A stretch of 64,000 nt of DNA, from positions 37,967-101,966 of the forward strand of contig JAFVOS010000007.1 of assembly GCA_017505705.1 (NCBI GenBank). The letters are read 5' to 3'. The number at the start of each line of letters is the position of its first letter. Position 1 is the stretch's first letter. The translations under genes were made by a program, and so were the position numbers. The stretch is from Alphaproteobacteria bacterium. Its GTDB lineage: Bacteria; Pseudomonadota; Alphaproteobacteria; Rs-D84. A model generated the notes under the pieces. That model was not told where the DNA came from. It searched no databases and saw only the letters and a program-made list of their open reading frames with translations. Shown one piece after another: positions 18,884 to 44,599 of the stretch.

Positions 18884-21265
18884 TTATTTTATAATATTGA
18901 ATTTATGTGATGTGCCGGTGCCAGTATCGGTGGAAATGCGAATGGTGTGGGTGCCAATTGATACAGGCTGGACGTGGGTTTCGCCCGGTTTTGTTCGGGC
19001 TATCATTTTATCATCCAGAAACCAAAAAATTTTATCGTCTGGGTTCTGAGTAATGGCCATAAATGATATTTGTGCCTGGTTGGCGTCTGATACGATTACG
19101 TGATTTGTGCCGTCTGATGGTGATATTATCAGGGGTGCCGATGTGTTCGCAGAAATGTCATCTAATTCACAGCCCGGCATAAATGGGGGTGGGGTGTTGC
19201 GTTCAATTCCCGCACGTTTGAACATGTCCAGATATTCTGCATCCCAAAATTCATAAACCACCATGTGGGTGTTTTTAGGATCGGCGTTGCATGCACGACG
19301 CCCAGTGGCATTATCAATGGGAACTGCACGATAAACCGGTGATGTGTTAATTGGTGATACGCCCGGGATAAAATACGCAGATACAGATTTTGGACAATGG
19401 GGGCCTGCGATGCCACCAACATCGGCACACATTTCAACGGTTGCAATATTTAAATCATCATGCATAAAATTGTTGTCTTTTGTTGGTATGTCGTGCTGTC
19501 TGTTGTATTCCAGTATGCTGTCAGCCAGGCTGAAATATATTGGGGCGGCTGTTTTTGCGCCGCTGAATGCATTGTTCGGTGCGCCGTCAAAATTACCAAC
19601 CCATACAATTAATACATAGTCGCCAAATATGCCAGCTGTCCATGCGTCACGATATGACGATGATGTGCCCGTTTTCCAATAGTGGGTTATACGCTGTGGT
19701 GTGTGTTTGGCATATGGAATCTTTTTGTCGGGGGAATATTGACGGGCCAGCATATCCAATGTCATAAAGAATGATTCTGGTGATAAGATGTGACCTGTTA
19801 TTTCATCGGGGGCAGATGTGCGCATTTTTATGCTGCGACGTGTGCCCAGATTCGCCATCGTGGCATAAATGTCAGCCAGTTCGTACATGGAAACTTCGGC
19901 ACCACCCAGTGCAATAGATATGCCGTAATGTGATGGTGGTTTCAGGTTGCTGACCCCGGAATCTGACAGTGTTTTATAGAATTTGTTCAGACCAATCTGA
20001 CGAACCAGATTAATCGCAGGAATGTTTCTGGAATGGGTCAGGGCATCACGTGCCAATACGGGACCATAAAATTCACTGTCTGAATTTTCAGGGGCGTATA
20101 CACCAAAATTTATTCGTGCATCTTTTAGCAGCGTCATCGAATGTATGTGGCCGTCTGCAATTGCAGATGCGTATATCAGGGGTTTAAGGGTGGAACCTGG
20201 ACTGCGTCGGGCGATGACGCCGTCATTTTGCCCCAGGATGGATTCATCAAAATAATTTACAGATCCAATATATGATAAAACCTGCATGGTTTTGTAATTT
20301 ATCAGTATTGCAGAGGCATTCTTAACCCCCATGTGTTTGCGGATGGAAACCTGGTGGCGAAGCGTGCGTTCCAGATGATTGTGTAAATCCAAATCCAGCG
20401 TAGTGGTAATTATCGAATCGGGTTGTTGCGGGACAGATTTGTCGTGTGTAATCTGGCGGTCTGTGAAATGGGGGGCGTGAAACGGTAAATCACTGAAACC
20501 GTATACAGACAGGGGCATTTGAACCATTGTGGATAAATTTGAGTCGTCTGGATATTTAGATAGCCAACGGCGTACCAAATCGTTTCGCATTTTTGCCATG
20601 GTGGTCATGCCATGTGACGTGTTCAGACCACGTTTGGTGGGATTCTGGGGAATTGTTGCCAGGGTTATTGACTGAATTGTTGATAAATCTTGTGCAGGAC
20701 GATGAAAATAAATTGTTGATGCGGCACCGATGCCTTCTATATTGCCACCATATGGGGCTAAATTTAGGTATGCTTCGATAATTTCTTGCTTGGAATAAAA
20801 AGCGTCAATATAAATTGCTGCGGCAATCTGTTCCAGTTTTCCGGGGATTGTTTTGGTGTTTATGTTGTATTTTATACGTGCTAACTGCATCGTTATGGTC
20901 GATGCGCCGGCGGTGTCTGTATTGCCGGATATATAGTTGCGTGTGGCACGAAACAGGGCAACGGGATTGATGCCTGGGTGTGCGTAAAAATATTTATCTT
21001 CGTATAAAATAGTTGCGCGAATGATGTCTGGTGGAATTTGATTATATGGCGTGAATATTCGATATTTTTCATCAGCAGATAATGTCAGGCGCAATAATTG
21101 GCCATTTCTGTCGTAATAGGCACGTGAAAAATATGTGTCTGATAATAAATGTGGGGTAAAAAATAGGCGAATGAATATGTATACAATAACTATTGCCAAG
21201 CAAAAAAGCCAAAATCGTGGAAGACGTTTTAATGTTTGTTTTAAATTTTTGGGATTTTTATTCAT
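18884..21265 (-). CDS. pbpC: penicillin-binding protein 1C
   Basis: transglycosylase (EDKYF, GASTITMQLAR), SPGSTLKP, KTGTS; directly downstream of alpha-2-macroglobulin. Confidence 0.92.
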   Translation of the reverse strand: MNKNPKNLKQTLKRLPRFWLFCLAIVIVYIFIRLFFTPHLLSDTYFSRAYYDRNGQLLRLTLSADEKYRIFTPYNQIPPDIIRATILYEDKYFYAHPGINPVALFRATRNYISGNTDTAGASTITMQLARIKYNINTKTIPGKLEQIAAAIYIDAFYSKQEIIEAYLNLAPYGGNIEGIGAASTIYFHRPAQDLSTIQSITLATIPQNPTKRGLNTSHGMTTMAKMRNDLVRRWLSKYPDDSNLSTMVQMPLSVYGFSDLPFHAPHFTDRQITHDKSVPQQPDSIITTTLDLDLHNHLERTLRHQVSIRKHMGVKNASAILINYKTMQVLSYIGSVNYFDESILGQNDGVIARRSPGSTLKPLIYASAIADGHIHSMTLLKDARINFGVYAPENSDSEFYGPVLARDALTHSRNIPAINLVRQIGLNKFYKTLSDSGVSNLKPPSHYGISIALGGAEVSMYELADIYATMANLGTRRSIKMRTSAPDEITGHILSPESFFMTLDMLARQYSPDKKIPYAKHTPQRITHYWKTGTSSSYRDAWTAGIFGDYVLIVWVGNFDGAPNNAFSGAKTAAPIYFSLADSILEYNRQHDIPTKDNNFMHDDLNIATVEMCADVGGIAGPHCPKSVSAYFIPGVSPINTSPVYRAVPIDNATGRRACNADPKNTHMVVYEFWDAEYLDMFKRAGIERNTPPPFMPGCELDDISANTSAPLIISPSDGTNHVIVSDANQAQISFMAITQNPDDKIFWFLDDKMIARTKPGETHVQPVSIGTHTIRISTDTGTGTSHKFNIIK

Positions 21266-24200
21266 TAACTTGACTTAATACACTGAATGTTTTGGATGTT
21301 GGTGTTTTCGTTGCGGTTATGTCTGGATTATACATAGATGTTGCATTGATTGCAGGTATGGCAAAGGTGCCTGCGGCAGTTATCTGGGCGGTGTATGTAA
21401 ATTCGGATGTGTCACGTGTTAAATCTGTGTAAATTATTACACGATCTTCACGTATTTCAGAAAATGTTTGCGGGCCAATAACGTCTTCGGCAACAAAGCC
21501 ACCGGGCAACAAATCAGTAATGGCAATGTCAGGCAGATAGTTTGTGCCACGTGCGCGGGCACTGATTTTTACAGTCACAATGTCGCCCAGTTTGGCGGAT
21601 GCAATTCTGTTGCCGTTTTCATCATAATATGTGCGAGAAATTTCAATGCCATTGGATTCGTCTGATGCGGTGGTGGCAAATCCTTGGGTGACCAGGGCGT
21701 AATATAGTGGGGTGTCGTGTGTACAAGACAAGCATTCTAAATCCAATGTTTCGGCAGGTGTTGGTACCTGGGCAATTAGGATGTTGGATTCATTATGGGT
21801 ATCCAATGGGGCGTCGTTGTATAATATTTTTACAGATGATGGAGCAGAATTGCCTGTTGCCGCCCCATTTAACCCCATTACAATTTTTGCAGATGTAAAG
21901 GCATCGTAATTTCCACGATTGATATAACCAGTGATGGCATTGCCAGTATAGGTGATTGGGGTGTTAAACAATGTGTTTAATATGTACAGATATGTCGCAT
22001 CGTCGGATACATTGTTTGAATATGCAGACATATATTTAAAGCTACTGTGTTTTGACAGTTTATATTGCTGGATTAATTCTTGGGCCCGGTCAGATTGGCG
22101 CATAATTTGGAAACTGGCCCCGATATATACCCCAGAAATTTCTGATTCCCAGTGGCTGATGTTTTTATCAGCGTATTCTTGGAATTTGTCGATATAACTG
22201 GTTGTGACATATCCGTTTGTGGTCAGTACATATATCGCATATGCAATTGCGTGTGCGTGTTCAGGGGTAGTAATTGTCGTGCCTGCAAATTCACGCAGAA
22301 AATCAATGGCGCGTCCCAACATTGTGTCTGGTACGCTGAAACCGTTTTGACGGGCCATGGATAAAAAGTGAACGACATATGCAGTCAATTCAGCGTTGCC
22401 TTTGTCGGTTGAATGGGTGGTACTGGTTGGCCACAGGGCAAATGAACCGTCTGGGTTTTGGCGGTTCTTTAATGTGTTTATTGTGTCGCCAATTTTCTTG
22501 GACGATACGTTATAGTTTGTGCCCAAAATTGTGTTGTCTGGCAACAGGACATATGGAATTGCCTTGGAAACCAGTTGTTCTGTACACGTAAAATCATATT
22601 TTGACAGATATTCAAACAGGGGCTTGATTAATATTGCAGGCGTTTGAGATATGTACAGGGTTTGGGTTGCGTGTTCTGGATACATATCAATATGAAAGCG
22701 TTTAATCGTTTCGTGCTTTTTATTTATGATGTCTGTTTTTATGTGGGTTTCAAATGGGGTCGCTGGACGCACTGATATTGATGATGTCATTGAACGATTA
22801 ATCAGGGCCAAACCGTTATCATTAACAGCACTGGCATTAATCGTTATTTCTGATGCACCAGGTGTGTTTTCTGTTTGAGCGTGGAATATGAACAGGTGAT
22901 CATCTCCATTTTGAATATGATTTTCCATTTGTGCACCAGATGTTATTTTTATGTTATCTGATGTGACAATGTCTGTTTGAATGTTGATGCCATCACTGAT
23001 GTCTGTAAGATTCGCAATCAGTGCATTTATCTCAAATGTGTCCCCGGGGGCAACAAATGTTGGATTGGATACAGATATAACCAGTGGACTTTGTACAGTG
23101 GTTTCAATTTCAGATGCGCCAGCTGCAACGTCATTTGTTATAATTGCATAGATTCTTAATGTGCCATTAAAGTTATCTGGTACGTCAAATGTTATATTGT
23201 TTTTTGTGTTGGCTGTGACATCAATAATACCTGAGTAAAACGCCACAGGTGATAATATGCGACGTGCAAATGGATTCGATAATGGAGACGATAATTCTGT
23301 GTCGGGTGCATCGAAATCACCACCACCTGTTTTGGCAAATTCGCGCAGTATTTTATATTCTGGCAACAGTAATGATAATATCTGAAATGTTTCAACCTGA
23401 AGCGCAGATTTTGCAAAGAAATATTTTAAAGGATTGGGCGTTTTAAAGCGTGCAACCTGTAAAATTCCTTCGTCTATGGCGAACAGCATCATGCGACCAG
23501 ATTGGCTGGATTCGTATTCAATGTTTAATTTGTTGTCACGAATGATTTTTGGTGCATTCAGTGTGACGTCAATCGTTCTGGATTTTATATCAGTGCTGAA
23601 TGGGGCAACAGCGTATGTGTATGGTGATGTGAATATGTCACGTGAATCTATGCTGCGAATAAATGATACGTTTATATATCCAGTGCCTTCAAAATCAGCG
23701 GGCAGTTTGATTTTTTGGACAGAAGATGTTTGGTCTGCCTTAAACCATTTATATGCGTATACATTATCCCTTTCGATTGTAATCAGACCATGACCGGGGT
23801 ATGGGGTGGTTATATTTATCTGTATTTCATCCCCAGGAGTGTATGTTTCTGAATTTAGGGTTATTTCCATTTCGGAACTTTGTATGGTATTCAGTTCTGG
23901 GTTATCATCGCCGGCAACAAAGTATTCGATGTTTGAGATAACCTTGTCAGCGGCATCCAGTATTTGAACAAAGTATGTGCCAGGTTTTTCTGTTATCAAT
24001 GGAATAGATGCACCAGTCGTTGCAAGTGTGATTTTTTCTTGGGATACGACAGTGTCACGATTTGTTGTTTGATATTTATAAAAATTATTATAGTCCTTGA
24101 TAAGGCTGGTCAATTTATCACGATGCACAAAACGTACGGTCAAATCATTTACTGCAATTGGTGCGGATGTGTGATCCAGTGCAATAAAATCAATTTCATG

Positions 24201-26996
24201 CCCACTGTTGCGATTAATGTATTTTAAGTTAGTGTTTGTGTGGTGGCCAATCAAATATTTAGCATTTGAACAACGTGAAGTTATGGTTGTTTGTACGGAT
24301 TTGCCTGAATTTGGCTCAAATCCATTAATTGTTGCGGTTAATAGGTATGTTCCGTTTGGAATAGGGGTGTCAAATCTTATGTCTGCGTGGACAAAGCCAT
24401 TGCTGTCGGTATATATGTTGTCGATTGTTTTGACATATGTTTGGTTGTTGATTGGACTGCTGGATGACATGGGGGTGTCGTTGGTCGCATCAATTACAAA
24501 GTTGTATTGTGAAAGATTGTCAAATTTGAATTCTAATGGACGCAATGTTGCACGAATGCTGACCCGGCGATTGGATGCAGGGGTGCCAAATAAATTGCGC
24601 AAATCAATGTCGGTGCTGATTGTATTTGGGAAAATCCATCCTTGGCTGATTGCGCCGTTAATTACAGCGTTTATTTTCATTGTGTCTGGTGAAAATTCAG
24701 CAACGCTAAATGTGGTGGTGCCAAGCAAATCTTGGGGGGTGGCACGAACGTTCAAAGAATAAACGTTGACACTGTATTCGCCAATGGCGGCAGATGCAGA
24801 AATTGGAACCTGGATATCAAACATGCCGTCTGAGTGAAGCGATATGTTCTTTTCAAATATTATGCGCCCCCTGGGGTCTGTGACGCTGACTTTTACGGGG
24901 ACCCCTTCGGGTGATTTAAATGATTTGTTTTTTACAATTGCACCAATAATTGCCGTTTCCCCTGGGCGATATATGCCACGATCTGAAAATAAAAATGCTT
25001 TTAATGGAACGTCGGTATATGAATATTGGCCACCGGTATCAAATTTAGAGTATTGGACATGTTGAGAATGGGCTGCATCATATGGAATAAATGATACATC
25101 ATCATTTAATCTGGCGACAATTGCCACAGGTGCGCGCGCGTTTTTGTATTCGTTCCATGGCAGGGCAGGTATGTCTGCACGACCATTGGTATCAGTGCGA
25201 CCAGACCATATGGGGTTGCCATTGCGTCCCAAAACATTTATTTGGGCATCTGGTACAGGACCACCATTGGAAAGCTTGGACACAAACAGGGCAGATGTGC
25301 CATCTGTGTTCAGCTTTCTAATTATTCCCAGGTCTGTCACCACGACAAGACGTTTGTCGTTGAATTCAGCGTCATTTTCTGATGTGCCGGCCTGGATAAT
25401 AAAAATACCCGTTTTATCATTGGAAACACGATCCATATAGTCGCCCAAATCAAGTGAAGCATAATTTGTTTCAATTGCGTTTGATACATTCAGTGGAATC
25501 CGCTTTTCAAATACGACAGACATGTCATATGTTCCAAAAGACCATGACTTAAATTCTATGTCAGAAGCAAATACATTATATGTTTGTGATATTAAATGAT
25601 TTATTTCAGATGATTTGATTTTGTATAATTTTATATATGCATCGTGTACACCACCACGTGTCATAATCCCCAGCTTCTTTTCACCAGACATCGATAATAA
25701 TGCCCCAGAACCTGCGATTTTAACCGATTGTTCTGGATAGGAAACAGGAACAACGGTATTCAAACCGTTTTTCATTGTAAAGTCACCAACTGATTTTGCG
25801 CCCGGTGTTATGTCAATGTACAAATATCTGGGACTGGGATTAGGAATGTTGTATGCAAATGCATATTGGTTAACGCCCACTGGGGTGACAAAGTCAGATA
25901 GAGATAGCTTTATTTTTTTTGAATTCAGTAATACTTCTGGGGTTATTTCGTCGCTTTGCCATATATGGTTGTTGTCCGATGTAGAGTTGTCTTTGTATTG
26001 TGGCAACAGGTATGCGTTAATATGTTGTTTCCAGTCTGTTTTGCCAGCGGCTGGTGCGCTGGTTTGTATCAGTATTAATTGACGTGCATTGTTTTCGGAA
26101 TCGTCTGCGACAATCGATTCCAGTGAAGTAATGCGGAAAAAATTATCCTGGGCATTGATTATTGTACTGCCAGTTATTTTTTCTGTGTCAGAATGACCGT
26201 ACATTGCAGATACACGATTAAGTTTTAGACGCAGATCCTGTTCTTGGTCAATGACAGAAATTGGTTCAGATATAACAAAGGCAGTTCTATGAAAACGGTC
26301 AAATTTAATGTCGAATTTTATTTTTTTACCATCCAGACGCATTGATACCTTGTCTGCAAAATGTTCTGTGTTTATGGGGTAATTAAAAGATAAAATCGCA
26401 ACGCCAATCAGTTTTTTGGGATTGTCGGGTGATGGGTATGTGTTAAAGGAATCCAGCGTGGCAGCAATTTTCTTGGTTGAAAATGTCGCAGAATAACGGT
26501 CTGGGTGAACGTCCTTTGAAAACAGACGTTTGGATATCCTGACTGTGTATTTTGTGTCGGCAGGCCATGGCGCATCCGGGGTAAATGTGATTGTATATGG
26601 GTTTTTGATTGAGAATTTACCATGAACCAATGGGCTTATTTTTACATATTTTGCCAGGTCTGAATCATCAAGGTTTATATTAAATGCAGGATTGTATGGG
26701 CCAGACAGCCAATTGTATGAAATTTCAATGTGTTGTGCATTGGTCAGTGTTCTGTTGTTATTAATATCTGGTGTTGATGCAGATGATATAAATACCTGAT
26801 TATTATTGTCGGTAAATGTTATCGGTGACGGCTGGCTTATGTGCAGGCGCAGTTCCGTTTTTTCTGATTGATTAAGGCCAAGTGACAGAAACAGTGCACC
26901 AGCAACAATTCCAATAACAAAAATTATCGCCAAACAGGGCCATAAATATCGGCGAAATACAGACTTTTTATGTGCTGTTTTTTTTGTGCGTGTCAT
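21258..26996 (-). CDS. bacterial alpha-2-macroglobulin
   Basis: FSDRGIYRPGE, AIDEGILQV, thioester motif CTEQ, DLLPGGF, REDRV; paired with pbpC. Confidence 0.92.
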   Translation of the reverse strand: MTRTKKTAHKKSVFRRYLWPCLAIIFVIGIVAGALFLSLGLNQSEKTELRLHISQPSPITFTDNNNQVFISSASTPDINNNRTLTNAQHIEISYNWLSGPYNPAFNINLDDSDLAKYVKISPLVHGKFSIKNPYTITFTPDAPWPADTKYTVRISKRLFSKDVHPDRYSATFSTKKIAATLDSFNTYPSPDNPKKLIGVAILSFNYPINTEHFADKVSMRLDGKKIKFDIKFDRFHRTAFVISEPISVIDQEQDLRLKLNRVSAMYGHSDTEKITGSTIINAQDNFFRITSLESIVADDSENNARQLILIQTSAPAAGKTDWKQHINAYLLPQYKDNSTSDNNHIWQSDEITPEVLLNSKKIKLSLSDFVTPVGVNQYAFAYNIPNPSPRYLYIDITPGAKSVGDFTMKNGLNTVVPVSYPEQSVKIAGSGALLSMSGEKKLGIMTRGGVHDAYIKLYKIKSSEINHLISQTYNVFASDIEFKSWSFGTYDMSVVFEKRIPLNVSNAIETNYASLDLGDYMDRVSNDKTGIFIIQAGTSENDAEFNDKRLVVVTDLGIIRKLNTDGTSALFVSKLSNGGPVPDAQINVLGRNGNPIWSGRTDTNGRADIPALPWNEYKNARAPVAIVARLNDDVSFIPYDAAHSQHVQYSKFDTGGQYSYTDVPLKAFLFSDRGIYRPGETAIIGAIVKNKSFKSPEGVPVKVSVTDPRGRIIFEKNISLHSDGMFDIQVPISASAAIGEYSVNVYSLNVRATPQDLLGTTTFSVAEFSPDTMKINAVINGAISQGWIFPNTISTDIDLRNLFGTPASNRRVSIRATLRPLEFKFDNLSQYNFVIDATNDTPMSSSSPINNQTYVKTIDNIYTDSNGFVHADIRFDTPIPNGTYLLTATINGFEPNSGKSVQTTITSRCSNAKYLIGHHTNTNLKYINRNSGHEIDFIALDHTSAPIAVNDLTVRFVHRDKLTSLIKDYNNFYKYQTTNRDTVVSQEKITLATTGASIPLITEKPGTYFVQILDAADKVISNIEYFVAGDDNPELNTIQSSEMEITLNSETYTPGDEIQINITTPYPGHGLITIERDNVYAYKWFKADQTSSVQKIKLPADFEGTGYINVSFIRSIDSRDIFTSPYTYAVAPFSTDIKSRTIDVTLNAPKIIRDNKLNIEYESSQSGRMMLFAIDEGILQVARFKTPNPLKYFFAKSALQVETFQILSLLLPEYKILREFAKTGGGDFDAPDTELSSPLSNPFARRILSPVAFYSGIIDVTANTKNNITFDVPDNFNGTLRIYAIITNDVAAGASEIETTVQSPLVISVSNPTFVAPGDTFEINALIANLTDISDGINIQTDIVTSDNIKITSGAQMENHIQNGDDHLFIFHAQTENTPGASEITINASAVNDNGLALINRSMTSSISVRPATPFETHIKTDIINKKHETIKRFHIDMYPEHATQTLYISQTPAILIKPLFEYLSKYDFTCTEQLVSKAIPYVLLPDNTILGTNYNVSSKKIGDTINTLKNRQNPDGSFALWPTSTTHSTDKGNAELTAYVVHFLSMARQNGFSVPDTMLGRAIDFLREFAGTTITTPEHAHAIAYAIYVLTTNGYVTTSYIDKFQEYADKNISHWESEISGVYIGASFQIMRQSDRAQELIQQYKLSKHSSFKYMSAYSNNVSDDATYLYILNTLFNTPITYTGNAITGYINRGNYDAFTSAKIVMGLNGAATGNSAPSSVKILYNDAPLDTHNESNILIAQVPTPAETLDLECLSCTHDTPLYYALVTQGFATTASDESNGIEISRTYYDENGNRIASAKLGDIVTVKISARARGTNYLPDIAITDLLPGGFVAEDVIGPQTFSEIREDRVIIYTDLTRDTSEFTYTAQITAAGTFAIPAINATSMYNPDITATKTPTSKTFSVLSQVNE

Positions 26997-27165
26997 TGAT
27001 TCCCTTCCTGGCATACAAGTATTTATTTTAAATGCATATTTTCAAAAGACAAGTTTTTTATTTTATTTGTGGCATATACATATTTGAATGCGTGGATTTT
27101 AGAATATTGGCCATAAACCGGGGGTTGAGAGAGTTTTTACTGTCACAACCCAAAAGGAGTATATT

Positions 27166-27789
27166 GTGGTATATGGCTATATTCGTGTTTCTACGGATCA
27201 TCAAACAACAGAAAACCAGCGTTTCGAAATAAAGAAATTCTGCGAAAAACAAGATTTGTCCGTTGACGTATGGATAGAAGAAACGATTTCTGCAACCAAA
27301 GATTTAAATAAGCGAAAATTAGGGCGTCTGATAAAAAGAATACAAAAAGACGATCTGATTATTGCGTCCGAATTGTCACGACTGGGGCGTAATTTGCTGC
27401 AAATCATGAGTATTTTGCACCATTGTATGGATATTGGGGCAAAAATTTGGACGATTAAGGATAACTATCGTTTGGGGGCAGATATTACCAGTAAAGTATT
27501 GGCGTTTGCATTTGGTTTGTCTGCGGAAATTGAAAGAAATTTGATATCCCAACGAACAAAAGAAGCACTGGCCCGCGTCAAAGCCGAAGGCAAGATGATT
27601 GGGCGACCAAAAGGCAGTGCTAATTTGTCTAAACTGGAAGGACGTGAAAAATATATTCTGCAACGTTTGACGGATGGGCGCAGCAAAAGTGAAATCGCAC
27701 GACGGCTGCATGTGCATCGTGATACGCTGAACAGTTTTATTACGCACAAGGGTATTATGTCTGATGGAATCGAGGTAATTGAAATTTAA
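27166..27789 (+). CDS. serine recombinase, Mpi-family master DNA invertase-like
   Basis: YGYIRVST catalytic Ser, ENQRFEI, ELSRLGRN, WTIKDNYRLG, SKVLAFAFGLSAEIERNLISQRTKEAL (recognised as Bacteroides Mpi-like from memory), C-terminal HTH; RBS AAGGAG. Confidence 0.85.
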   Translation: MVYGYIRVSTDHQTTENQRFEIKKFCEKQDLSVDVWIEETISATKDLNKRKLGRLIKRIQKDDLIIASELSRLGRNLLQIMSILHHCMDIGAKIWTIKDNYRLGADITSKVLAFAFGLSAEIERNLISQRTKEALARVKAEGKMIGRPKGSANLSKLEGREKYILQRLTDGRSKSEIARRLHVHRDTLNSFITHKGIMSDGIEVIEI

Positions 27790-29691
27790 TCAAAATTTCA
27801 ATTTACCTTTGGCCAAAACATAGACCTCGTCGGTGCCGTATGGGTTGTCGACAAATGTGGCGGTAAGATTTTTATAGCCAACGGAATATTCAATCGCTGG
27901 ACGTGATGCCAGGTCGATTTGATAATCGTTGTATAACAGTGTGCCGTTCATATTGCGTCCAGATGGCAGGCGCATATTCATTGTACCATCAATGATTGCA
28001 TCGTTTGTTGCAATGGAAATTGTCCAATTTCCCATTGTTGCGCCCAAAGTAATGGATGTTGTGTAAATGTTTGAAAAGTCGGTTACAACAGAAGAATCAC
28101 CGCTGATGTGTGGGTTGCTGATCCCCAGTTCTGTGCGATGGAAAAATTTAAGGCTGCCTGTGTCAATTGTGCCGTTTGTCGCAATGTATGTTATAGATGT
28201 CTTGTCTGTTGTGCTTAAAAATCCGTCTGCGCCCAAAAAGTCGCTGGTGCGCATACCAAATTCTATATTGCCAATTTTTGCATTTGGCTTGCTTTCTTCA
28301 CGCAGGCGAACAAATGCACGTCCAGGATTTTGTATTTTTATATTATCGTTTAACTGGGTTTTAAATGTGCGACCAAAGTCGTCTACGAATGCCAGTTGTA
28401 AATTTTCTGATTTAATTTGATGTGCAATTGTACCAGAAACACGTGCCGTTTCCAATGGACGGGCGACAGTGTCGTTAATTGGTATTAATTCTGTTCCAAC
28501 AGGTCGGGTGGCACGTTCCAGATCCAGCATGCCATGTCCATATGTTTCATCAATGCCCAGTTCGCCCAAATCACGTGCGGTGGCGAATAATAATTCGGTA
28601 ATTTGGCTGGATTTCATGTATGGGAATGCTTCACGAATAACGGCGACGGCGGCACTGACCAGTGGGGCTGCAAAACTGGTGCCGTCCAGATATTTAGAAT
28701 ATCCAGCTGATAAGTTTGTGCCAGGGGCGGTGATGCAAAAGTTCTTGGTTACCCCACATGCATTACTGAAATCTGCCAGGGCACCTGTTTGTTCGTCCCA
28801 TGCCACAACATTTACAAAATGGCCGTTTAAATCTGATGAAACGTTCGGCAATGCGGACAGGGCGTTCGACTGATTTGCGCCATTATTACCAGCGGCCCAT
28901 ACAAATATAGCATCTTGTTCACGTGCAGCATATTCAATGGCACTGATAAATGTTTCATCCGTTATTCTGACCAGGTCATTACGTGTTTTGATTGTGTTTG
29001 CGTATCTGTTGCTGATAACCCAACTGGCATTATATATATTGGCATCGTCAATCGAATTGATAATATTGCCGATTTGTTTGAATGGTAAAAAGTTATTGTT
29101 GCTGTCATATACCTTATAGCTGTTTACAACTGCATCTGGTGCAACAGATTCTGATGCGATTTGTTCAACCTTTTGACCATGGAATATATCATTGCCAGTG
29201 TCCAGAATAGCAATTGTTGAATTTTTACCTGTGTATCCACGTGCCATGGAATATGCGGCACGAATTTCATTATATTGATTATAATTTTTTGTGTATTCAC
29301 GACTGTCCATTGCTGCGGCCAGTTGTGTTTTTGTGACGTCGTTGCCAACGTGGCTATAGACGGGCAGGGTTGGTGAATGTGTGATAATCACACCACGTCC
29401 TGTGTCAACGTTGTTTGCAGATGTGGCACTGGCAGGTTGGTCGTCGCCCGATGATGATGCCCCAATAATTGCCAGACCCGCCCCAATGGCAGCCAATGCG
29501 CCACCTGCGACAGCGCTGCTGGCGGCAAAAGAGAAAGATGAGCTTTTCTTGTAGCTGGGACACTGATCTGGGTTGTATTTACGAAATGTTGCGTTTTCGC
29601 AATTCACAGAATCAATAAGTGCACCATGAACAGGCGCAGCTAATACCGCACCGCTCAAGATAACCGACAAAAATACTTTGCTCTTCATCAT
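27790..29691 (-). CDS. secreted S8 (subtilisin-like) serine protease with C-terminal beta-rich domain
   Basis: signal peptide; catalytic ILDTG, HGQKV, WAAGN, GTSFAAP; terminal Phe. Confidence 0.85.
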   Translation of the reverse strand: MMKSKVFLSVILSGAVLAAPVHGALIDSVNCENATFRKYNPDQCPSYKKSSSFSFAASSAVAGGALAAIGAGLAIIGASSSGDDQPASATSANNVDTGRGVIITHSPTLPVYSHVGNDVTKTQLAAAMDSREYTKNYNQYNEIRAAYSMARGYTGKNSTIAILDTGNDIFHGQKVEQIASESVAPDAVVNSYKVYDSNNNFLPFKQIGNIINSIDDANIYNASWVISNRYANTIKTRNDLVRITDETFISAIEYAAREQDAIFVWAAGNNGANQSNALSALPNVSSDLNGHFVNVVAWDEQTGALADFSNACGVTKNFCITAPGTNLSAGYSKYLDGTSFAAPLVSAAVAVIREAFPYMKSSQITELLFATARDLGELGIDETYGHGMLDLERATRPVGTELIPINDTVARPLETARVSGTIAHQIKSENLQLAFVDDFGRTFKTQLNDNIKIQNPGRAFVRLREESKPNAKIGNIEFGMRTSDFLGADGFLSTTDKTSITYIATNGTIDTGSLKFFHRTELGISNPHISGDSSVVTDFSNIYTTSITLGATMGNWTISIATNDAIIDGTMNMRLPSGRNMNGTLLYNDYQIDLASRPAIEYSVGYKNLTATFVDNPYGTDEVYVLAKGKLKF

Positions 29692-29834
29692 TTCTTCGTG
29701 TCCCTCCGCAGGCACCACGCCCACACATATTATTATATAGTACAAAAAAACTGCTTGTCAATATGTTGAGCGGGGAAATGTCTTGGTCGAATTTTATATT
29801 TTTACTTGATTTTTTTAAGGATTTGGTTTAGTAT

Positions 29835-42348: not shown

Positions 42349-43350
42349 ATGTCAAAAGTAAGAGTTGCAATTAACGGTTTCGGGCGTATCGGGCGCTTGG
42401 TTTTGCGTGCAGCACTGGAATCTGGGCGTGATGATATTGAATTTGTTGCTGTAAATGATTTGGCACCAGCTGAACAAAATGCATATTTGCTAAAGTATGA
42501 TTCTGTACATGGTAATTTACCCATGGATGTTGTGCTGGATGGTGATTACATCAATGTGGGAAATCAACATATTAAGTGTATCGCAGAACGTGATCCTGCA
42601 AAGTTGCCATGGGGCGAATTGAATATTGATATTGTAATGGAATGTACAGGGATATTTACGGCAGCAGACAAGGCACGTGTTCACCTGGAAGCAGGGGCCA
42701 AACGTGTTCTGGTTTCGGCGCCATCGGCTGGGGCGGACAAGACAATTGTATATGGTGTAAACCAGGATACATTAACATCGGACGATTTAATCGTTTCTAA
42801 TGCATCTTGTACAACGAATTGTTTGGCGCCTGTGGTCAAGGTATTGAATGATACGTTTGGCGTGGTATCTGGTTGGATGACAACAGTACATGCATATACC
42901 GGTGACCAGCAGTTGCTGGATAAGAATCACAAAGATTTCCGTCGTGCACGTGCGGCAAATCTGTCAATGATTCCAACCAGTACAGGGGCAGCCAAGGCAA
43001 TAGGTTTGGTTTTGCCAGAACTGGCGGGCAAATTAGATGGAATGGCGATTCGTGTCCCAACCCCAGATGTGTCTGTGGTGGAATTGGTTGCTAATTTGGA
43101 AACAGCGGCAACGGCTGATGAAGTGAATGCAGCAATGAAAGCGGCAGAATCAAAAACATTTGGATATAATGATTTGCCGTTGGTATCGATTGATTTTACC
43201 CATGATGCACACAGTTCTGTATTTGACGCCGGTCAGACCAAGGTTTTGGGTGATAAATTGGTTCATGTGACAGCGTGGTATGATAATGAATGGGGTTTTT
43301 CAAACCGTATGGGCGATACCGCTGTTGCAATGGGTAAGTTGATAAAGTAA
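42349..43350 (+). CDS. gap: glyceraldehyde-3-phosphate dehydrogenase (type I)
   Basis: AINGFGRIGR, SNASCTTNCLAP, WYDNEWGFS. Confidence 0.97.
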   Translation: MSKVRVAINGFGRIGRLVLRAALESGRDDIEFVAVNDLAPAEQNAYLLKYDSVHGNLPMDVVLDGDYINVGNQHIKCIAERDPAKLPWGELNIDIVMECTGIFTAADKARVHLEAGAKRVLVSAPSAGADKTIVYGVNQDTLTSDDLIVSNASCTTNCLAPVVKVLNDTFGVVSGWMTTVHAYTGDQQLLDKNHKDFRRARAANLSMIPTSTGAAKAIGLVLPELAGKLDGMAIRVPTPDVSVVELVANLETAATADEVNAAMKAAESKTFGYNDLPLVSIDFTHDAHSSVFDAGQTKVLGDKLVHVTAWYDNEWGFSNRMGDTAVAMGKLIK

Positions 43351-43407
43351 AAAAATTATGTATGTGTTTTCCCCATGCAAAATTTAGTTTGTGTGGGGAT
43401 TTTTATA

Positions 43408-43436
43408 TTGCTAAAATCGTCGCAATGCATTAGAAT
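43408..43436 (+). promoter_or_regulatory. sigma70-type promoter upstream of invertible segment
   Basis: TTGCTA (43408-13), 17-bp spacer, TAGAAT (43431-36). Confidence 0.55.
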
Positions 43437-43461
43437 ACATGGCATAGACAGGAAAAATACC

Positions 43462-43578
43462 TGCCTAAAATAAAGGGACGTTTAGAATCTCCCTTTTTAT
43501 TTTTATAAAATTCCCAGATTTCTGCATATTTTTCTCCCTTAATTATTGCCTAAAACAAACGTCGGGTTTTTATCGGCA
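43462..43578. promoter_or_regulatory. candidate invertible segment carrying RBS, ATG and signal-peptide n-region
   Basis: sites tgcctaaaataaagg[GA]cgtttagaatct and tgcctaaaacaaacg[TC]gggtttttatcggca; 7-bp IR gacgttt (43477-83) / aaacgtc (43557-63); minus strand inside reads aagggag-aaaaat-ATG CAG AAA... Confidence 0.75.
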
Positions 43579-43920
43579 ATTGCAATAATGCCAACAAATT
43601 TGATGGCCCTTCAGTTTTGTCAGACAAAGGCAGAATGTGTCACTAGTACTAGCTGTACTTCTGGTATGGGTGGGTGTTGTGCAAAAAATGGGGAAACTGG
43701 TACGCATTATGATTGCCCCAGTGGTTGTACGTATGATTTGATGAAAAAGATATGTGATTGTGGTACTGTGTCTGGTTTAACAGATACAACTGGTACATAT
43801 GAAGGTACATCATGTACAACGGAGTATTCGACATCAACAATTGAGTGCTATATGTATTACAATAAAGGTAATGAAAACTGTACAGGTAACGCACAGTGTA
43901 AGGACAATTTGGTGCAATAA
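43546..43920 (+). CDS. small Cys-rich secreted protein; lacks its own RBS and n-region in this orientation
   Basis: Cys-rich ORF (CPSGCTYD, DTTGTYEGTSC); in-frame TAA at 43540-42 and no SD before the TTG; completed by inverting 43477-43563. Confidence 0.7.
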   Translation: MPKTNVGFLSAIAIMPTNLMALQFCQTKAECVTSTSCTSGMGGCCAKNGETGTHYDCPSGCTYDLMKKICDCGTVSGLTDTTGTYEGTSCTTEYSTSTIECYMYYNKGNENCTGNAQCKDNLVQ

Positions 43921-43955: not shown

Positions 43956-43979
43956 AAAAACCGCCAATTGGCGGTTTTT
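43956..43979. terminator. bidirectional terminator
   Basis: aaaaaccgcc-aatt-ggcggttttt. Confidence 0.7.
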
Positions 43980-43991
43980 GTTAAAATTATC

Positions 43992-44486
43992 TTATTCGGC
44001 TACTTCTGGTTTTGGCATACGTTGTGCACGATGTTCACGACGCATTTCTTTTTTAAATGCCTTGAATTCTGCTTTGTCAACGCAACCGTCTGAATTGACG
44101 TCGATTTGTGGTAATTTTTCAGCAATTTTTGGGCATTTTACAACCAAACAACCATTTTCAAATTCTGGTTTTGGCATTTTACCACGTTTTGGACATGGCA
44201 TCATTTTTGCAGCGGCAAAACCCAATGCAAAGAATACCAACACAACAACCAATTTTTTCCAAAAACCACAATGATGCTTTTTGCATTCACAATTTCCACC
44301 GCATGGGCAAGAATGGCCACAGCCACATGTGTGCATTTCAACAACAGGTGCCTCTACCCTTTTTACAGGTGATTTTTTTGCAGGTGCTGTTTTTTTCGCA
44401 ACTGTCTTCTTAGCCGGTGCAGCTTTTACAGTTGTTTTTTTTGTTGCTGGCTTTTTAGCCACTGTTTTTTTCGTTTTTTCTGCCAT
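43992..44486 (-). CDS. membrane protein: Lys/Ala-rich N-terminus, Cys/His cluster, one TM helix, EF-hand-like C-terminus
   Basis: AKKPATKK repeats; CGCGHSCPCGGNCECKKHHC; LVVVLVFFALGFAAA; DVNSDGCVDKAE. Confidence 0.7.
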   Translation of the reverse strand: MAEKTKKTVAKKPATKKTTVKAAPAKKTVAKKTAPAKKSPVKRVEAPVVEMHTCGCGHSCPCGGNCECKKHHCGFWKKLVVVLVFFALGFAAAKMMPCPKRGKMPKPEFENGCLVVKCPKIAEKLPQIDVNSDGCVDKAEFKAFKKEMRREHRAQRMPKPEVAE

Positions 44487-44599
44487 GGGTTCCTTTCCTT
44501 TGTTTGTTGACGGTTTGATTGTATTCAATAATTTTTTTTAAGTAAAGTATTTTTTTAGAATAAAAATCTATTAAAAAATCCCGCAGATGCGGGATTGGA

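Follow-up and report, generated by a model that had tools for sequence, protein, structure and literature searches.

Phase variation by DNA inversion usually flips a promoter or swaps a coding end. Known invertible-promoter switches include fimS of Escherichia coli, the polysaccharide promoters of Bacteroides fragilis, which are inverted by the global serine invertase Mpi, and the per-gene promoter switches of the mpl genes of Mycoplasma penetrans. The element described here lies at positions 43395–43580, in front of a cysteine-rich gene, in a 64,000-nucleotide stretch of DNA (the window; G000:C5:37967–101966, G000 being the genome itself and C5 the contig) from a metagenome-assembled genome (MAG) of Candidatus Enterousia. 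In this element the promoter appears to stay on, and the translation start and export signal appear to flip. As in fimS, Mpi and mpl, a site-specific recombinase would invert a short segment between inverted repeats, the switched genes encode surface or secreted proteins, and OFF copies predominate; as in Mpi and mpl, there are many loci per genome with similar sites, probably served by one enzyme. Unlike in these three systems, the promoter is fixed outside the segment, and it is the Shine-Dalgarno sequence (SD), the ATG and the first 15 codons that would flip. The segment is also only 73 bp, with a perfect core of 7 bp, and one repeat lies inside the coding region. An invertible promoter has its promoter inside the segment; at this locus it is outside, and promoter modules that do flip were found at two loci in other species (L016 and L094, below).

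Other known switches act downstream of the promoter. In the cwpV switch of Clostridioides difficile (recombinase RecV), a terminator forms in the 5’ untranslated region (UTR) when the segment is OFF, and flgB is likewise controlled by a 5’ UTR switch. The Enterousia segment resembles both in lying between a fixed promoter and a gene, where it would act after transcription initiation, and in some lineages it carries a clean hairpin found only in OFF. The difference from cwpV is that the main effect would be the loss of the translation start and of the signal-peptide n-region, while a hairpin with a T run is absent in 46 of 68 OFF copies. The expression sites of mycoplasmas and ureaplasmas – vsa (M. 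pulmonis), vsp, vpma and mba – work by large inversions that move a shared promoter-plus-start between clustered genes. Here too the recombination site is in the 5’ end or signal-peptide region, the organism has a reduced genome, and silent genes have no start of their own, but each of the dispersed Enterousia genes has its own promoter and a private start cassette.

By position the element is a ‘partial intergenic inverton’, with one repeat coding and one intergenic, as the term is used in the available text of Chanin et al. (PMC10028968). In the portions available of that paper and of Milman et al. (PMC9881135), repeats of at least 22 bp were required and the segments reported are significantly longer; partial intergenic invertons and gene-altering inversions are described there as shufflon-like exchanges in which the downstream parts of a gene are swapped behind one upstream part. 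At the Enterousia locus the opposite orientation holds only a 20-amino-acid (aa) open reading frame (ORF) that ends in the leader, and there is no second gene body. Neither those portions nor a literature search gave an account of a cassette with only a ribosome-binding site (RBS), start and n-region, and the supplementary tables of the two papers may list such cassettes. Inverton finders that rely on repeats would likely skip a 7-bp repeat and a 73-bp segment.

The element and its six copies in one genome

The host MAG is a gut alphaproteobacterium with a genome of 0.96 Mb in 12 contigs, 96.8% complete. Candidatus Enterousia belongs to the order Rs-D84 of the Alphaproteobacteria, and its genomes are ca. 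1 Mb and come from farm-animal guts (PMC12306168). The features of the locus are:

43370–43399, + strand: intrinsic terminator of the upstream gap gene, a stem of 12 pairs with a T run after it; bounds the inserted unit on the left
43408–43436, + strand: fixed sigma-70-type promoter, TTGCTA-17-TAGAAT, outside the invertible segment and left of the left repeat
43462–43483, + strand: left recombination site, arm TGCCTAAAATAAA and core gacgttt (43477–43483), present in all six copies of this genome
43472–43504, + strand: OFF-state hairpin and T run (aaaggga-11 nt-tcccttt), a possible weak terminator
43484–43556, − strand: putative invertible cassette of 73 bp, now OFF, with SD AAGGGAG (43540–43534) and ATG (43527–43525)
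43545–43580, + strand: right recombination site, from inverted-repeat analysis, with core aaacgtc (43557–43563) inside the signal-peptide coding region
43546–43920, + strand: Cys-rich secreted-protein gene, 124 codons open from TTG; the 118 codons from 43564 are kept in both states

The initial annotation of this sequence had proposed an inverting translation start, and the parts on which it relied are all in place. The two 7-bp cores form an inverted pair, and a promoter search found the promoter-like site. The minus strand carries the SD, a 6-nt spacer and the ATG of the short backward ORF of 20 codons, MQKSGNFIKIKREILNVPLF*, which ends in the leader. The Cys-rich ORF has an in-frame stop upstream (TAA at 43540–43542, two codons before TTG 43546) and no purine-rich SD; what precedes it is the pyrimidine-rich complement of an SD. 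Judged from the sequence, the Cys-rich gene in its present orientation is without a start signal of its own. Codons 1–15 of the signal-peptide n-region are inside 43484–43556 and codons 16–17 (N, V) are in the repeat core. The 135-aa product predicted for the flipped form agrees with the arithmetic of 17 cassette codons and 118 gene codons, a count of codons and not an assembled product.

The right site in OFF is a palindrome of two 14-nt arms (43545–43558 and 43567–43580) around an 8-nt spacer, with 79% complementarity, and the arm occurs a third time to the left of the left core. The 7-bp inverted core extends imperfectly to 22 nt at 73%. Taken alone, the 7-bp repeat is within chance – there are 19 inverted pairs of at least 7 nt in 401 nt. 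The whole arrangement is beyond chance because it is conserved: there are six copies in this genome and 78 in the genus, and a control search gave no matches.

The unit at 43395–43580 (ca. 180 nt) occurs six times in the genome with 84–100% identity, starting just past the gap terminator at this locus. All six copies have one order – promoter, left site, backward cassette, right site, gene – and all are OFF. Each full copy precedes a different open frame of 124–343 codons, rich in Cys, Thr, Ser and Gly. Paralogs of the window ORF lie behind two of the other switches (59% and 47% identity), and one paralog behind a switch matches Ephrin_rec_like repeats (Pfam). The leader is thus conserved (84–100%) far above the proteins that follow it (47–59%). 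At the OFF ‘start’ four of the copies have TTG and two have CTG, with no SD before it, so 43546 is not a conserved start. Sites with both arm and core were found in the genome only at the six switch loci and at one further place, likely a chance match.

In the proposed mechanism, the fixed promoter would transcribe into the 73-bp cassette, whose bounds would be the 7-bp inverted core AAACGTC within longer arms of the TGCC[TG]AAAA type. In OFF, the SD, ATG and n-region point back to the promoter, and the gene would be transcribed with neither a usable RBS nor a charged n-region. Inversion to ON would make one frame of the M-Q-K-S-G... n-region and the hydrophobic part of the signal peptide, which would meet at the N-V codons of the core, and would move the palindrome to the left junction, as in the ON copies of relatives. 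A comparison of 43300–43700 with known RNA families gave nothing near a gathering score. A reading of this region as a riboswitch or leader RNA was dropped, since it has no RNA-family match and the ON forms account for the conservation.

Two further places in the genome carry parts of the element. At G000:C6:8787–8832, directly after the terminator of another gene, are 46 nt of the cassette with the SD, the ATG and the first codons but neither recombination site; this fragment looks like a relic. On contig C10 (1849 nt, locus L004) one switch and a Cys-rich gene are flanked on both sides by a paralogous gene end (PNLLNQKKVQIAAS...), the two copies being inverted to each other; a larger structure, invertible or repeated, could account for this, or a knot in the assembly.

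Downstream of the window gene, a hairpin at 43960–43975 is likely a two-way terminator between it and a convergent neighbor (43992–44528, − strand). The 178 aa encoded by the neighbor comprise a Lys/Ala-rich N-terminus, which matches HC2 (histone-like) weakly and below cut-off, a stretch rich in Cys and His, and a part that weakly matches an EF-hand. For the 124-aa Cys-rich protein itself a Pfam scan gave no family. Leads from a protein atlas were discarded as sub-threshold (the best, a hirudin cluster, at 0.76) with structural TM below 0.4.

ON and OFF copies in related genomes

The genus was surveyed by BLAST of the leader (101 genomes) and by a search for the start motif (201 genomes), which gave matches in 57 genomes; the reversed pattern, used as a control, gave none in the 201. 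Related Candidatus Enterousia genomes have up to 20 motif sites each. All listed sites were retrieved, 120 of them unique. By the filter 46 lacked an SD, of which 45 were unrelated and were dropped before counting; one true OFF copy among the 46 (L268) was recovered with a looser SD filter. The looser filter gave the final set of 78 SD-bearing cassettes in 21 genomes, with 68 OFF and 10 ON.

The M[QR]KSG start of the ON copies opens ORFs of 133–442 aa with a putative signal peptide, one of the ten being cut at 40 aa by a contig end. The first ON place found, G060:C8, was the one place in the BLAST at which the left part of the leader matched forwards and the cassette backwards. There the order is TTGCTA-17-TAAAAT, palindromic junction, GGGGAG, ATG and then a 442-aa ORF starting MRKSGKLLCRIMPNLIVGLGAAMPAFA. 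At least seven ON copies have a forward promoter ca. 105 nt upstream and a palindromic left junction. The initial annotation had predicted that the left junction would become near-symmetric on flipping and had called for the flipped junctions to be sought in related MAGs; both the junction and the full order – promoter, palindrome, SD, ATG, long ORF with putative signal peptide – are found there. In the OFF copies, the frame on the far side has a median of 244 aa and is at least 100 aa in 62 of the 68, and two more run off the available DNA. The inverted repeats are conserved as recombination sites, and each orientation occurs naturally between flanks that otherwise match.

Paralogs and other species, ON and OFF, share the −35 and −10 hexamers and the 17-nt distance between them, and the spacer sequence drifts. 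Conserved promoter hexamers and OFF genes that are kept open fit a reversible switch; decay predicts the opposite. M-[QR]-K-S-G is kept across all ON and OFF cassettes of the genus, with variable third codon positions (TCT, TCA, TCC, TCG), which points to selection on the peptide, perhaps as an n-region sorting or export motif. Every ON N-terminus has a Lys or Arg.

Fused proteins of the predicted kind exist in metagenomes. A search of a collection of 5.8 billion proteins, with the window ORF as it stands as the query, matched the window’s own gene in a 105-aa version that starts at an internal ATG, as well as three ENA metagenome proteins of 138–145 aa, 47–53% identical to the window ORF by BLASTP. 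Their N-termini are:

ENA protein 1: MQNSGNFIKIKRAILNV-GFLSAIAIMPTNLMA
ENA protein 2: MQKSGKFIKIKRTILNV-GFLSAIAIIPTNLMA
ENA protein 3: MQKSGNFIKIKRAILNV-GFLSAIAIMPTNLMA

Each has 15–16 of the 17 residues of the backward cassette ORF and then 14–15 of the 15 that follow N-V in the window gene (the GFLSAIAIMPTNLMA stretch). The fused N-terminus that had been predicted for the flipped window locus has natural counterparts in these three proteins. Public gene calls for the silent genes, on the other hand, start at internal ATGs (43588 and 43603 in the window; P0001, P0005, P0006 and P0007) and give 84–110 aa instead of 135 (213 aa for the C1 paralog), without the signal peptide. Standard annotation thus misreads this Cys-rich family.

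ON and OFF copies were also compared within single genomes. In four genomes the cassettes of such a pair are opposite in orientation and nearly identical in sequence:

G132: 100% over 257 nt (promoter and left site, 93 nt; inverted part, 87 nt; right site and gene start, 77 nt)
G060: 98.9% (cassette)
G052: 95.6% (cassette)
G197: 94.3% (cassette)

Identity of the element between lineages is only ca. 70–80%, so cassettes that are 94–100% alike within a genome indicate at least four separate inversions. The exchange point in each pair is the 7-nt core, where the alignments overlap, and the inverted span is 87–90 nt everywhere. The core itself differs by lineage: AAACGTC in this genome, and AATCGT, AAACGGT or AATCGGT elsewhere.

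Two loci, L016 (G052:C3 near 143344) and L094 (G197:C10 near 245052), have in addition a promoter module that is itself flanked by perfect inverted repeats (14 bp) belonging to the same type of site. The promoter now points at the divergent neighbor gene, and the start cassette of the right-hand gene is ON. This looks like one promoter common to two genes, with the cassette as a second layer of control. The flipped modules in G052 and G197 mean that these sites also form invertible promoters of the classical kind in some species.

A second lock, a terminator-like hairpin in OFF, was part of the proposal for the window locus. The sequence and the T run at 43472–43504 are present, but the terminator is weak: the hairpin folds at −7.8 kcal/mol (z −0.9), with 31 of 200 shuffled sequences folding at least as well, and its stem is broken in the C9 copy. 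A hairpin with a T run follows the left site in 22 of the 68 OFF copies, relative to 5.35 of 68 in shuffled sequences and 21 of 68 for the reverse complement of the same stretch. These hairpins are confined to this species and to the lineage of G099, G197 and G080. In that lineage 15 copies have CACCGAT-N4-ATCGGTG, a clean 7-bp stem with a 4-nt loop that occurs only in OFF. A contribution to termination is plausible in some lineages; at the window locus it is doubtful, and the hairpin is unlikely to add some transcription termination there.

Many genomes of the genus (for example at L219, L222, L228, L248, L266 and L267) have a different conserved element, ...aaattcaggctgtatt then ATGCGGAAATCTGGG..., to which many of the 45 unrelated sites belong. 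Its match to the start motif is a chance one, and with neither an SD nor a long ORF it is possibly an RNA gene.

Candidate invertases and competing explanations

The initial annotation had mentioned neither the family of copies across the genus nor an enzyme. The window itself encodes a candidate for the latter, 16 kb upstream of the switch:

27166–27789, + strand: small serine recombinase of 207 aa, candidate invertase for all six switches; Pfam Resolvase (E 6.9e-32) and C-terminal helix-turn-helix (HTH) matches

The gene is intact, and it is the only small serine recombinase in a genome that also has two large serine and six tyrosine recombinases. It stands alone between two secreted-protein genes on the opposite strand, of 1918 aa (21258–27014, −) and 651 aa (27790–29745, −), whose translations look alpha-2-macroglobulin-like and subtilase-like, respectively. 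Of 201 genomes, 62 have an ortholog with at least 72% identity: 20 of the 21 with cassettes and 42 of the remaining 180. The surveyed genomes are kin, so this co-occurrence is a lead and not an independent test. Hin and Gin, the known invertases of this type, act at sites of ca. 26 bp with dyad symmetry around a 2-bp crossover and use a Fis-bound enhancer. The candidate is like them a small serine recombinase with a C-terminal HTH. Compared with their sites, the dyad symmetry of the right site spans ca. 36 bp as 14 + 8 + 14, and a segment of 73 bp leaves little room for an enhancer. On balance, catalysis of the inversion by this enzyme is slightly favored.

A tyrosine recombinase could work the same switch – one of the XerC-/XerD-like enzymes (G000:C9:93812 and C8:51377) or an integrase. 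Core sites of tyrosine recombinases, and those of the Xer-type mycoplasma invertases, typically have a 14-8-14 layout; the right site, with its two 14-nt arms and 8-nt spacer, has this form, and six tyrosine recombinase genes are available in the genome. The one on C2 (343 aa), which was profiled across genomes, was rejected as the invertase, as it is sporadic (15 of 101 genomes), is unlinked to the cassette and has no full-length close ortholog in other cassette-bearing genomes; at 95–98% identity between species, it is probably on a mobile element. With all but one of the 21 cassette-bearing genomes having the serine recombinase at an identity of at least 72%, a tyrosine enzyme is a serious but tentative possibility, at less than an even chance.

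Whichever enzyme acts, the reading of 43395–43580 as a programmed inversion switch of the translation start is given a probability of roughly 80%. In its favor, relatives hold the flipped form, fused proteins exist and the OFF start codon is not conserved. We infer that switching is reversible and ongoing, and that OFF yields little or no protein. Several observations weigh on the other side. At this very locus, where flipping is a prediction, only OFF was seen, whether in the MAG, in Logan contigs (four runs from four studies) or in all six database contigs of the gene’s 90% cluster. The Logan contigs, from runs with a word depth of ca. 11–35x on the unique flanks, break at the repeated leader (ca. 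43399–43607); those pieces that span the switch have the OFF order. Among the contigs listed from the four runs there were no joints, and the junctions had no loose ends. Minority variants are lost from contigs, so an OFF-only set is a lack of support and does not mean that rare ON cells are absent. The C1 paralog likewise is found only as a truncated OFF-type call (6 member sequences, 3 contigs). The identical ON/OFF pair of G132 differs upstream of the promoter, which means two loci or a chimeric join and is not proof of two states at one locus. In two of the ON cassettes (G052, G197) the promoter is flipped away, so cassette orientation alone does not define expression. The association of recombinase and cassette is confounded by shared ancestry, and one cassette-bearing genome, G056 (92% complete), had no match to the small serine recombinase. 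A distance of 73 bp between crossover cores would be short for synapsis in cis. Finally, the OFF frame starts with ATG, TTG or GTG in 60 of the 68 OFF copies, and some translation with no SD is possible.

Two other samplings added nothing on orientation. A metagenome scan with an orientation-neutral right-site pattern gave 21 stretches, all in unrelated contexts, in a collection seemingly without this species. In the two nearest named MAGs, whose GAPDH is 92% and 78% identical, gap is followed by other genes; the unit is not there, and they offered no orthologous locus for comparison.

The frequent NTG in OFF is the basis of another explanation, in which the OFF gene is translated with no SD from NTG 43546 or ATG 43588, and inversion changes the amount of protein and its n-region, giving two isoforms or a high and a low state. 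The codon before CC[TG]AA in OFF is ATG in 22, TTG in 22 and GTG in 16 (the other 8 copies do not have the arm motif), a product from TTG would have a plausible short signal peptide with Lys at position 3, and gene callers do call ORFs there. However, the TG belongs to the conserved arm TGCC, which makes NTG automatic; its first base depends on lineage, and the codon is CTG in two copies of this genome. The SD complement upstream and the stop two codons before also argue against initiation, as do the OFF N-termini (MPNLNVGL and similar), which in most lineages have no positive charge, while every ON N-terminus has one. The NTG is best read as a by-product of the arm, at which weak SD-less initiation may occur, and a switch between two translated forms is improbable.

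An evolutionary relic, with rare historical inversions that silenced genes and OFF copies that are young pseudogenes, would explain why no sample is heterogeneous in orientation at this locus, why OFF outnumbers ON by 68 to 10 and why a site-less cassette fragment exists at G000:C6:8787–8832. Pseudogenes of this kind are hard to reconcile with frames of at least 100 aa in 62 of 68 OFF copies (median 244) behind conserved promoter hexamers, or with recombination sites that are intact in ON and OFF copies alike. Separate flips in at least four lineages, with cassettes that are 94–100% identical, and an intact candidate recombinase gene also speak against it, making this explanation very improbable.

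Implications for Candidatus Enterousia

Beyond the single locus, a genome-wide regulon of ‘translational invertons’ has about an even chance of being correct: 6 to ca. 20 dispersed genes for secreted or surface Cys-rich proteins, each with a private 73-bp cassette and its own constitutive promoter, under one global small serine invertase. If so, its cassettes would be among the shortest programmed inversions known, and the class would have been missed both by inverton finders, which need long repeats, and by gene callers, which truncate the ORFs. With promoter modules that flip as well in some species, this host-dependent gut symbiont would then control its variable surface repertoire combinatorially, by two keys. 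The cassette is also a compact natural unit for recombinase-controlled translation, of possible use in engineering.

Given the short repeats and the truncated gene calls, the surface repertoires of uncultured, reduced-genome gut bacteria may be systematically under-read. For Candidatus Enterousia, the switches point to variable secreted or surface Cys-rich proteins as a main interface with the host, partner cells or phages.

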